A stretch of 64,000 nucleotides of DNA from a plasmid. This document shows, piece by piece, positions 53,723-57,584 of the stretch. The DNA lies in the sequence record NZ_CP044080.1. One strand, 5' to 3'. The stretch's first letter is position 1, and every line of letters begins with the position of its first letter. Position numbers and translations under genes: made by a program. The notes below the pieces were generated by a model that saw only the letters and a program-made list of their open reading frames with translations, searched no databases and was not told where the DNA came from.

Positions 53723-54958
53723 TCAGGACGGGCCGGCCGGTGCGAGCTGCCGGGCAATCTGCGCGCCCGCCGCGCCCCAGCGGGCATGCAGGGCCGGGGC
53801 GCCGCCCTGCTGCCAGGACCGCCAGGCCTCGGCCGCCGGGATGCTGCCGAACCAGCCGATGCCCTGCGGCGCGGCGGGGGTATGCAGCACCTCGCGCTCG
53901 ACCAAAAGGCCGTCCTCGACCAGGATGGTGCGAGCGATGCGCGGGCGCTCGGGCGGTGGCAAGGCGGGCAGGTCGTCGGGAAAGTCCCGCCGCGCTGCCC
54001 AGAAGGGCTCGGCGCGAAAGCGTGGCTCGGCACGCAGGAAATCACGTCCGATCCGCGCCTGGTGCAGGCTGGTCTGCAGCGCCCGTTGCGTAAGGAAGCG
54101 GCGGCAAAGGGATTGCGCGCCGGGCCGGGCCGCCAGCGTGCGGCGCACGGCCGCGACGGCAAGCGCACTCGACACCGCCCAGAACTGGCCGTGGCCCGAA
54201 AGCGGGTCCATGGCAGCCAGGGCATCGCCGACGCGCAGCAGGTCCAATGCCCCGACCGGCCCGGGCAGGCGCGGCGCCGCCTCGCGCACCAGAGGCTGGC
54301 CGGAAAGCGGCGCATGAGCCAGCGCCGGCTCGGCCGCGGCCATGGCGGCTTGCAGCCGGCCAGCCGGGCTGCCGTCGCCGGCGGCGTCCAGCACCGCCTG
54401 GATCCAGACCCGTCCATCGGGCAACGCCACCCGCCACAGCCAGCCCTGCGGCAGCGCCACCAGCCGAATGCCGGGAGGCAGGTTGGCCCGCACCCAGCCG
54501 GACAGCGCCACCGTGGCCGGCGCCTTGCCGATGCTTGCACGCGCGCGGCGACCTCGCGCGTCGATGACCATGGGCGCGCGCAGTCTGTCGCTGCCCAGCC
54601 ACACGCCGCCCGGCTCGGGCCGGCCGCTGCCGATGGCCAGCCGAGCGCCAGCAGCCTGGGCGCAGCGGCGCAGATGGGCGTCCAGCGCAGCGCGCTCAAC
54701 CACATGTTCGGCATTGCTTTCGCTGACGCCCGCCCAGTCCACCTGCCGCCTGAACGGGCCGAAAATGCCGGCAAACCCGTCGATCAGCCCCTGGCCCGCC
54801 AGCCAACGGTGCAGGCGCGGGCTGAGCCCCTCGAGCCTCGGCCGGTCACGGGCGGGATCGATCAGCAGCACGCGCAGCCCGTCGCGCGCCGCAAGCCAGG
54901 CCGAAACCGCGCCTGCCGGCCCACCTCCCAGCACGATCAGATCGGCATCCGCGCCCAT
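53723..54958 (-). CDS. FAD-dependent monooxygenase (QhpG-like / tryptophan-halogenase-fold flavoprotein)
   Basis: 411 aa from the ATG at 54958 (MGADADLIVLGGGPAGAVSAWLAARDGLRVLLIDP). It is divergent from the qhpA-like gene; the QhpG assignment rests on context. Confidence 0.6.
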   Translation of the reverse strand: MGADADLIVLGGGPAGAVSAWLAARDGLRVLLIDPARDRPRLEGLSPRLHRWLAGQGLIDGFAGIFGPFRRQVDWAGVSESNAEHVVERAALDAHLRRCAQAAGARLAIGSGRPEPGGVWLGSDRLRAPMVIDARGRRARASIGKAPATVALSGWVRANLPPGIRLVALPQGWLWRVALPDGRVWIQAVLDAAGDGSPAGRLQAAMAAAEPALAHAPLSGQPLVREAAPRLPGPVGALDLLRVGDALAAMDPLSGHGQFWAVSSALAVAAVRRTLAARPGAQSLCRRFLTQRALQTSLHQARIGRDFLRAEPRFRAEPFWAARRDFPDDLPALPPPERPRIARTILVEDGLLVEREVLHTPAAPQGIGWFGSIPAAEAWRSWQQGGAPALHARWGAAGAQIARQLAPAGPS

Positions 54959-55172
54959 GCGCCGTTCCCTTTCCTTACCCTGCCTTGCCTGAATGAAAGG
55001 CACCTTGCGCCGGATTGCCGCCCGCGAACCTGACATTTGCGGCCAAAGCCACAGGGCGCGCGACGATGCGTCGCGACTCTGGCCGGGAATGACAAGAACC
55101 TGCCCGCCGCTGGCGCTTTTCTGGACCTCATCGCGATCGGGCCATTCCCGACAAGCCACAGGAAGCCGCCAG

Positions 55173-56227
55173 ATGAAGCCACTGACCCGAACCGCCCTGG
55201 TCTCTGCCGCCGCCCTTGCCGCCGCCCCGGCGCTGGCGGTCAGCGGCGAGGACGTCCTGCAAAACGCCTGCGCCGCCTGCCACGTCAAGCACGAAGACGG
55301 CCGGTGGGAACGCATCGACGCCGTCCGCAAGACGCCCGAGGGCTGGGACATGACGGTGACGCGGATGATGCGCAATCACGGCGTCGCGCTGGAACCGCAA
55401 GAGCGGGCGGCTGTGGTCCGCTACCTGTCCGACACCCGCGGTCTGACGCCCGAAGAAGCCGAGGGGCGCCGCTATATCCTGGAACGCGAACCAGTGGCCT
55501 TCGACGAGGGTCCCGATACGCTGATGACCCAAACCTGCGGCCGATGCCATTCCTATGCCCGCGTCGCCCTGCAACGCCGCACGCCCGAGGATTGGGCGCA
55601 TCTGGTGAACTTCCACCTGGGCCAGTTCCCGACGCTGGAATACCAGGCGCTGGCGCGGGATCGCGACTGGTGGGGCATCGCCCAGGCCGAGATCATTCCC
55701 TTCCTCGCCAAGACCTATCCGCTGGGCGAGGCGCCGCCCGCCTTTGCCGGCGACGCTTCGGGCGACTACGTCCTGGCTGGGCGCCAGCCGGGGCGTGGCG
55801 ACTATACCGGACGGCTGGCGCTGACGAAAGCGGGTGACGATTACGCCGTGACCATGACGCTGGACTTCGCCGACGGCAGCGCAAGCTACAAGGGCACCGG
55901 CCGCATCCTGGGCGCCGGCGAATGGCGCGCGACGCTGAGCGACGGCAAGACCGGGATCCGCCAGGTCCTTGTTTTTCACGACGGCCGCTTCGACGGGCGC
56001 TGGTACCACGCCGACAGCGACGTGATCGGCGGCAGACTGGCGGCGGTGACGATGCGGGGCTTTTTACGCCAGGCGACGCCGGGCCGAACCCGGAACGCCC
56101 GATGCAGACCAACAACGCGGGCAACCTGAAGGTCATCGCCACCGTGGACACGGGTGGCGTGCCGCTGACCGCCGAGGCGCATCTTTACGCCACGGTTCAG
56201 CGCTTTGTCGACGCGCCGATCCGGTGA
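55173..56227 (+). pseudogene. Quinohemoprotein amine dehydrogenase alpha-subunit (QhpA)-like gene, shortened and frameshifted
   Basis: Signal peptide plus a di-haem c domain (CAACH, CGRCH). The frame breaks near 56060-56100 and continues in another frame (MQTNNAGNLKVIATVDTGGVPLTAEAHLYATVQRFVDAPIR) to the TGA at 56225. The total of about 350 aa is far shorter than typical ~500-aa QhpA. Confidence 0.6.
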
Positions 56228-56231
56228 CGCC

Positions 56232-57584
56232 ATGGGAGCCCTGACCCTGATCCGCCACAATGCCCGCCGGGTCGATGTCGACGGCCATGCCATGCTGATG
56301 TATGTGCCGACGACCAGCCTGTTCGAGCTCGACGGCGTGGCGCGCGACGTCTATGACCTGTTCCGCAGCGCGCCCGCCGTAGACCCAGACCTGATGCGGG
56401 CGCGGCTGGGCCGGCACAGCCCGGACACGCTGGCCGACTGCCTGCACAGCTTCCTGGCGCTCGACATCCTGCGTGACGCCGATGCGGCGGATACCCCCCG
56501 CCCGATCACGAAGGTCGAGGGGATTCCGCTGTCCACGATCATCCTGAACGTGAACACCGGCTGCAACCTGGCCTGCACCTATTGCTACAAGGAGGACCTG
56601 ACCACCCCCGCCAAGGGCCAGAAGATGGGCTTTCACACGGCGCGCGCCAGTTTCGAGCTGCTGCCGAAGCAGGCCCATGCCCGCGACCGGGTGAACGTGG
56701 TGTTCTTTGGCGGCGAGCCGCTGTCGAACATGCCGCTGATCCGCGAAGTGGTGGCCTATGCCCTGCCGCGCGCGGCGGAGCTGGGCAAGACGGTCGATTT
56801 CTCGCTGACCACCAATGCGACTCTGCTAATGCCCGACCTGGTCGACTGGTTCGACGCGCATCGCTTCGCGCTGACGGTCAGCATGGACGGGCCCAAGGTG
56901 CTGCACGACCAGAACCGCAAGACGGTGGGCGGCAAGGGCACCTATGACCTGGTGGCGCGCAATGTGCGCATGCTGCTCGCGCGCTATCGTTCGCGACCGG
57001 TCGGCGTACGGGTGACGCTGACGCGCGGCGTGACCGACGTCATCGGCATCCACGACCACCTGAAGAACGATCTCGGCTTCCACGAGGTCGGCTTCGGCCC
57101 GGCGACCTCGGGGCCGATCGCGGTATTCAACCTGGATCAGCAGGCGCTGCAAGCCGCCTTCGAGGACATGAAGACCCTGGGCCGACGCTATGTCGAGGCC
57201 GCCTGCCGGGGCGAGAATATCGGTTTTTCCAACATGCACCAGTTGCTGACCGACATCGCCCAAGGCACCAAGAAGGCCGTGCCCTGCGGCGCCGGGCTGG
57301 GAATGCTTGCCGTGGACAAGGAGGGCGATCTGCACCTCTGCCACCGCTTCGTCGGCTCGAACCAGCCGACCTATGGCAATGTCGCGCAGGGCATCGACGT
57401 GCCGGGGTCGTCGTATCGCGCCTTGGCCCGGCTATTCCCTGTTGCTGCCGACTTTAGCACAGGCGGGCCGCGACCTCTCAAAAAGCTGCGCCTTGGCGGC
57501 CCGGCCGGTGCGACGTCGCGAAGCCCTTGCGAATACGACAGTTTTGCGACGGATCGCGGCGATGGACGCCCGAGACGAACCTGA
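56232..57584 (+). pseudogene. QhpD-like radical SAM/SPASM maturase gene (anSME family), 3'-truncated and lacking the second SPASM cysteine cluster
   Basis: rSAM CNLACTYCY and the first SPASM half (VPCGAGLG...HLCHRF) are present, then the sequence degenerates (no CxxCx5Cx3C) into a low-complexity, non-coding-like 3' end. Confidence 0.6.

Follow-up and report, generated by a model that had tools for sequence, protein, structure and literature searches.

Positions 53723-57584 of a 64,000-nt stretch of plasmid record NZ_CP044080.1 (the window, to whose numbering all positions refer) hold qhpG and truncated copies of qhpA and qhpD, genes of the qhp/pea operon for quinohemoprotein amine dehydrogenase (QHNDH), with an intact aldehyde dehydrogenase gene (aldh) downstream. 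The interval starts at 53723 because the stop codon of qhpG sits there. Megablast of window 53700-59100 against a plasmid collection retrieved three Paracoccus yeei plasmids at 97.7-98.6% identity, which served as intact references (pYEE1, NZ_CP031079.1; FDAARGOS_252, NZ_CP020441.2; and NZ_CP024423.1), and in each of them the matching part, ending at window 57404, is ~480 bp longer than in the window. The main reference was locus L081, the annotated region of P. yeei CCUG 32053 plasmid pYEE1 at 120.6-130.0 kb. Its intact layout comprises qhpG on the minus strand, qhpA-qhpD-qhpC-qhpB-qhpE-qhpF on the plus strand, qhpR on the minus strand and aldh on the plus strand, followed by Lrp and hppD; the operon genes are annotated there as peaA/qhpA, peaB/qhpD, qhpC, peaD/qhpB, an S8 peptidase (qhpE), an ABC transporter (qhpF) and an AraC regulator (qhpR). 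P. yeei FDAARGOS_252 has an identical locus layout. The window is collinear with pYEE1 over 44001-63995 at 97-99% identity and likewise over 1-44112, and the genes on both flanks of the qhp locus form an identical set in the two plasmids.

The qhpA 5' remnant (55173-56048, plus strand) retains native codons 1-292, encoding a signal peptide, the di-haem cytochrome c domain I and domain II. It lies within an open reading frame (ORF) at 54993-56129 on the plus strand, whose true start is at 55173 (MKPLTRTALVSAAALAAAPALA...) and which carries CAACH and CGRCH; the N-terminus MKPLTRTALVSAAALAAAPALA was judged signal-peptide-like by eye. The product matches Pfam PF09098 (haem-binding, 291 bits) and PF14930 (domain II, 97 bits) and, in frame, positions 6-288 of 510 in TIGR03908 (344 bits), and its residues 1-292 are 99.7% identical to pYEE1 QhpA. 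From 56049 to 56129 (plus strand) translation continues out of frame for 26 residues, TMRGFLRQATPGRTRNARCRPTTRAT, before a stop codon, giving a predicted QhpA stub of 318 aa (292 native and 26 out-of-frame). A 3' remnant at 56051-56227 (plus strand, within a short ORF at 55922-56227) preserves codons 453-511, 59 codons from the end of domain IV, with matches to TIGR03908 positions 442-510 and PF09100 positions 65-133 and a tblastn alignment of residues 453-511 at 98.3%. Since this 3' part lies in a different frame from the 5' part, it is untranslated. No single frame encodes the full four-domain QhpA, domain III (PF09099) being absent, and TIGR03908 coverage shows a gap of ~153 profile positions together with a frame change. 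The initial annotation, made from the window's letters, had described a broken qhpA frame about 150 aa short; the break stands, and the actual shortfall is 160 codons.

The qhpD remnant (56232-57404, plus strand) retains native codons 1-391, encoding the radical-SAM core with its CX3CX2C motif and only the first two SPASM cysteines. Its ORF spans 56205-57584 on the plus strand, with the true ATG start at 56232, and ends in a read-through tail (57405-57584, plus strand) of 59 unrelated residues and a stop codon, derived from former qhpR-aldh intergenic DNA; the predicted QhpD stub is thus 450 aa long. The stub matches TIGR03906 at positions 1-384 of 467 (600 bits; cut-off 453) and keeps C111, C115 and C118 of CX3CX2C as well as SPASM C352 and C370. 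Residue-by-residue comparison with pYEE1 QhpD reveals the loss of C408, C411, C417, C421 and C440, including the CX2CX5CX3C SPASM core, so that the SPASM domain is incomplete. Tblastn carried the QhpD alignment on to residue 427 by opening 16 gaps, an extension rejected as spurious; in the direct comparison, homology ends at residue 391. The earlier identification of a di-haem, signal-peptide gene followed by a radical-SAM gene as qhpA-qhpD is borne out by the TIGR03908 and TIGR03906 matches and by synteny with intact operons, as is the claim that qhpD lacks its SPASM C-terminus, the profile match ending at 384/467 and five cysteines being lost.

Comparison with the three P. yeei plasmids and with P. 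denitrificans identifies the locus as a qhp (QHNDH) operon, and alignment with pYEE1 maps the deletion endpoints. Blastn resolves the locus into three blocks collinear with L081: window 53709-56048 with L081 15001-17340 (98.9%, gapless), window 56048-57404 with L081 17821-19177 (98.2%, gapless), and window 57404-63995 with L081 24150-30793 (97.2%). At junction 1 (56048/56049), placed by the blastn block ends and the junction sequences, 481 bp (L081 17341-17821) with qhpA codons 293-452 are gone, with 1 nt of microhomology. This deletion takes out QhpA domain III and the first half of domain IV and, as it amounts to 160 codons plus 1 nt, shifts the qhpA frame. At junction 2 (57404/57405), placed by blastn, junction sequences and tblastn and likewise with 1 nt of microhomology, 4,973 bp (L081 19178-24150) are gone, comprising qhpD codons 392-484, the whole of qhpC, qhpB, qhpE, qhpF and qhpR, and 60 nt of the qhpR-aldh spacer. 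Junction 3 (57601/57602), established from a multiple alignment and a presence/absence table, lies 45 nt 5' of the aldh start codon, where 52 bp of the aldh upstream region have been lost at a CCGG microhomology (4 nt). Deletion 2 is older than deletion 3, because one contig (L086) has junction 2 yet retains the 52 bp. All three deletions presumably arose by illegitimate recombination of an end-joining or slippage type.

Tblastn with the P. yeei proteins found no match to QhpC, QhpB, QhpE or QhpR anywhere in the 64-kb window, and for QhpF only a distant match of 26% identity to an unrelated ABC gene (39191-39772). The missing genes encode the gamma subunit, which carries the cysteine tryptophylquinone (CTQ) cofactor and the thioether cross-links, the beta subunit, the subtilisin-like leader protease, the ABC exporter and the AraC activator. 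The absence of qhpC and qhpB ahead of the aldehyde dehydrogenase gene, reported by the initial annotation, is upheld by tblastn and the deletion map; the loss was understated, qhpE, qhpF and qhpR being gone as well. The same annotation called the locus decayed. Its status as a non-functional remnant holds; as the alignments have it, the present state is one of three clean deletions, and diffuse erosion does not describe it. Judged by these comparisons, the interval is very probably a non-functional remnant of a qhp/pea (QHNDH) operon on a large P. yeei extrachromosomal replicon. Its ancestor would have had intact qhpG on the minus strand, qhpADCBEF on the plus strand, qhpR on the minus strand and aldh/qhpH on the plus strand; after the deletions the stubs would evolve without constraint, and qhpG and the aldehyde dehydrogenase gene would survive only as intact orphans.

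Neither surviving gene is damaged. The qhpG gene (53723-54958, minus strand), left unnamed by the initial annotation together with the third, 52-bp deletion, encodes the flavin-dependent monooxygenase that hydroxylates the QhpC tryptophan. Its 411-aa product matches NF049967 over the full length (403 bits; cut-off 240) and shows 98.5% identity with pYEE1 QhpG across 410 aa; the alignment contains neither gaps nor stops. The exact protein is filed as QEU07042.1 and WP_150349573.1. One GenBank record numbers the exact QhpG and aldehyde dehydrogenase proteins consecutively (QEU07042.1 and QEU07043.1), which suggests that it assigns no protein product to either stub. The divergent qhpG-qhpA intergenic region (54959-55172), the presumed promoter region, is retained inside the gapless 98.9% block to L081. 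The aldehyde dehydrogenase gene (57647-59050, plus strand) encodes 467 aa, matches PF00171 with 506 bits and aligns gaplessly with its pYEE1 counterpart at 98.7% protein identity; members of its 90%-identity cluster are named 'aldehyde dehydrogenase QhpH'. Consensus scans for sigma-70 promoters and terminators in the intact qhpR-aldh spacer and in window 54900-57700 found no promoter-like sites. In aldh codons 408-412 (58869-58882), a 14-nt stretch contains four substitutions, of which codon 408 has two; the cluster sets the window apart from both intact P. yeei alleles and from a contig with the deletions (L092) and resembles a small conversion tract or a multi-nucleotide mutation.

Compared with the intact P. 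yeei qhp/pea operons, the window has 97.7-98.9% nucleotide identity and common flanks, with the same order and orientation of qhpG, qhpA, qhpD and aldh, and is short of 481, 4,973 and 52 bp. The intact qhp order recurs in P. aminovorans, P. denitrificans DSM 413, P. simplex, P. onchidii and Amaricoccus, and aldh lies directly downstream of qhpR in P. denitrificans, P. simplex and P. onchidii. The qhpADCBEFGR system of P. denitrificans has the same architecture, as confirmed in the DSM 413 locus (L004), and its proteins are 73-95% identical to the P. yeei references; that locus is complete and experimentally functional, whereas the window has only qhpG and the aldehyde dehydrogenase gene whole. 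The Pseudomonas pea system (peaABCD) has homologous genes for the alpha subunit, radical-SAM maturase, gamma subunit and beta subunit. In the intact cluster of Pseudomonas citri (L021), qhpA, qhpD, qhpC, qhpB and qhpE are collinear at 48-79% identity; it differs in having its qhpF, qhpG and aldh homologues upstream of qhpA, and a search for a qhpR homologue in this locus found none.

The junctions recur in independent assemblies. Logan contigs of SRR8991243, SRR8991244 and SRR8991245 are 100% identical to window 54568-58387, with all three junctions and the exact 450-aa QhpD stub, and a contig from ERR1009409 (L088) covers window 51005-58387 at 99.95% identity, again with all three. Two contigs from Copenhagen sewage metagenomes carry all three junctions (L093) or span junction 1 (L089); junctions 2 and 3 are found in L087 (ERZ11425653) and L092 (ERZ11425763), junction 2 only in L086 (ERZ27141859), and junction 1 in L094 (ERZ28617688). 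At least eight independently assembled data sets carry junctions, and in four of them a single contig, 99.95-100% identical, crosses both main junctions. In the protein collection there are, in addition, six different QhpA stubs of 318 aa and three different QhpD stubs of 450 aa, each set with identical aberrant tails. Shared aberrant tails and independent contigs together indicate that the deletions are real and have been inherited by a lineage that has since diversified. Exact scans of the JGI metagenome collection with 24-nt sequences over junction 1 and junction 2 gave 0 matches each, so the evidence on prevalence comes only from ENA, Logan and NCBI look-ups; a literature search for run accessions SRR8991243-5 and ERR1009409 found no mention of them.

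That the breaks are assembly or sequencing artefacts, and that the strain really has an intact operon, is hardly credible. A single assembly can in principle lose sequence, and three contigs begin or end at or near the junctions (L092 starts at 56048, L086 at 57350, 54 nt before junction 2, and L094 ends at 57403), a sign of assembly-graph branching there. Such branching is, however, expected from metagenomes that mix intact and deleted strains, the junctions occur in at least eight independently assembled data sets, and the deleted segments are not collapsible repeats, with only 1 nt of microhomology at the main junctions. Contigs from public read sets and metagenomes carry the junctions, some at 100% identity, which removes the reservation that the breaks might be errors of assembly. 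The contig ends of L086, L092 and L094 also suggest that intact and deleted P. yeei alleles co-occur in those samples.

For QHNDH biogenesis, Oozeki et al. 2021 (PMC7876137), citing Nakai et al. 2014, name qhpA, qhpB and qhpC as the three QHNDH subunit genes and assign to QhpD the formation of three thioether bonds in QhpC, to QhpE the cleavage of the leader peptide, to QhpF the export of the gamma subunit and to QhpG the hydroxylation of the cofactor tryptophan. They also state, citing Nakai 2014, that amine-induced QHNDH expression needs all of qhpABCDEFGR. As every qhp gene is reportedly required, no QHNDH would be expected from the window locus, and amine-inducible QHNDH activity from it is predicted to be absent. 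Nothing in the sequence argues for function of the locus.

Several observations weigh against a dead locus. The stubs show no extra indels or stops relative to pYEE1, and their ratio of non-synonymous to synonymous divergence (pN/pS) against it, 0.07-0.17, is no higher than that of neighbouring intact genes (0.08-0.50). In RefSeq the QhpD stub of 450 aa has an ordinary protein entry, WP_223850218.1. Only 64 kb of a ~4.6-Mb multi-replicon genome is in view. A signal of decay emerges only from the within-lineage test, which involves small counts, possibly recombinant haplotypes and error-prone metagenome contigs; in it, polymorphic substitutions among the deletion-bearing alleles are 12 non-synonymous and 11 synonymous, compared with 4 non-synonymous and 19 synonymous among those private to two intact alleles (Fisher p = 0.029), and counting the seven synonymous changes fixed throughout the deleted alleles in the constrained class lowers this to p = 0.0056. 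Because stub pN/pS is not elevated relative to pYEE1, most of the divergence predates the loss. The direction of the within-lineage test fits neutral evolution of dead genes and speaks against a new function, and in L094 the qhpD stub is split by one more deletion, of 1 nt, at window 56494.

The limited extent of the window leaves room for another, intact qhp locus elsewhere in the genome, from which a strain with a dead locus here would still make QHNDH, and Paracoccus genomes contain many paralogous catabolic loci. We regard this as distinctly improbable: in the three complete P. yeei strains, megablast of the plasmid collection, which covers plasmids only, identified one plasmid per strain with one qhp locus each. 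A QhpD search of a genome contig collection returned no P. yeei record among its matches, the best being P. binzhouensis at 93%. Neither the stub frameshift nor the non-synonymous enrichment has any bearing on a second copy. Loss of QHNDH from the organism as a whole, as opposed to loss from this locus, assumes that no second qhp copy lies outside the window.

It is more improbable still that the stubs have been repurposed, the 318-aa product serving as a free periplasmic di-haem cytochrome c, or the QhpD stub and orphan QhpG acting on another substrate, for example from the RiPP-like cluster (ribosomally synthesised and post-translationally modified peptide) upstream. In its favour, the deletions have spared the haem domain, the signal peptide and the radical-SAM core, both qhpG and the gene for the aldehyde dehydrogenase are whole, and a lineage that has diversified still carries the deletion allele. 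Set against this, the AraC activator gene qhpR is deleted, non-synonymous changes, L145P among them, accumulate in the qhpD stub, which has been frameshifted again in one lineage, and the RiPP-like cluster upstream already includes a complete radical-SAM/SPASM enzyme. The auxiliary-cluster cysteines, moreover, are a defining part of the QhpD-family SPASM domain, and their loss counts against a repurposed enzyme. A non-functional operon remnant stays the preferred reading.

The RiPP-like cluster itself (45793-51256, minus strand) is conserved in pYEE1, whose annotation of the cluster goes no further than hypothetical and radical SAM genes. It begins with an ORF at 50630-51256 encoding 208 aa without a family match and composed in part of four tandem ~22-aa repeats (...HVNSGPPGFVNGGGHANFDP...), whose repeated aromatic-X-Asn motifs (HVN, FVN, HAN) suggest a putative cyclophane-type multi-core precursor. 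Next to it are an unassigned 270-aa ORF (49762-50571), the radical-SAM/SPASM enzyme (48194-49759), whose best NCBIfam matches, DynA and PapB, are both below cut-offs, an aKG-HExxH-type peptide beta-hydroxylase (47004-48194; TIGR04267, 90 bits), a hypothetical ORF and a TPR protein.

Other differences from pYEE1 are scattered over the window. An 853-bp scar at 52856-53708 has no intact gene and contains fragments of an aromatic acid/H+ symporter of the major facilitator superfamily (MFS) and of the benzoate diol dehydrogenase BenD; the fragments are ~82% identical to the P. versutus benD and MFS genes, and the scar is common to two other P. yeei plasmids (95-96%), with a LysR fragment in its place in pYEE1. 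Within the region 29852-32377, at 30651-32016, the window has 1,366 bp that are absent from pYEE1, with a 5-nt overlap at the pYEE1 junction. A GMC-family flavoprotein oxidoreductase gene (29852-31423, 523 aa) is whole in the window, and the corresponding pYEE1 stretch has no annotated gene. Insertion of a mobile insertion sequence was rejected as the origin of the 1,366-bp excess, the segment being the interior of the GMC oxidoreductase gene lost by pYEE1; each strain therefore has private deletions on the replicon. Compared with pYEE1, one nucleotide change has created a stop codon in each of two genes: W313* in the gene for an ABC transporter substrate-binding protein (9085-10368, minus strand), located between tmm and the gmaS/FCD regulator genes, and Q127* in a hypothetical gene of 157 aa (45320-45790, plus strand).

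The cytoplasmic N-methylglutamate and trimethylamine routes have been kept, in agreement with the initial annotation: mgsABC, gmaS, mgdABCD, tmm, tdm and the dimethylamine monooxygenase (dmm) genes, together with folD, are full length and gapless, with no stops. A mau cluster for methylamine dehydrogenase has also been reported from RepB1 replicons of P. yeei (PMC11578231), so the species has another periplasmic amine dehydrogenase besides QHNDH, and not every such enzyme has necessarily been lost. P. yeei genomes reportedly contain ~190 pseudogenes on average, of which 36-49% in each strain lie on extrachromosomal replicons (PMC11578231), and gene loss of the qhp type is routine in this species.

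The deletion allele is present in at least two NCBI genome records. A wider reading, in which niche-driven shedding of periplasmic primary-amine oxidation marks a spread, natural sub-lineage of P. yeei, an opportunistic pathogen, with qhpG and qhpH kept for another role, is doubtful, though less so than the alternatives weighed above; were it true, the junctions would constitute a lineage marker and an example of adaptive pathway loss on a chromid. The case is one of ordinary lineage-specific gene loss, and both the enzyme system and such pseudogenisation on Paracoccus extrachromosomal replicons are already well documented. In practical terms, WP_223850218.1, named 'quinohemoprotein amine dehydrogenase maturation protein', is a truncated stub and not a working enzyme, and the three junction sequences are handy strain or lineage markers. 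The P. yeei lineage with these deletions is predicted to be unable to oxidise n-butylamine, benzylamine or phenylethylamine through QHNDH, an ability that other P. yeei strains would retain.

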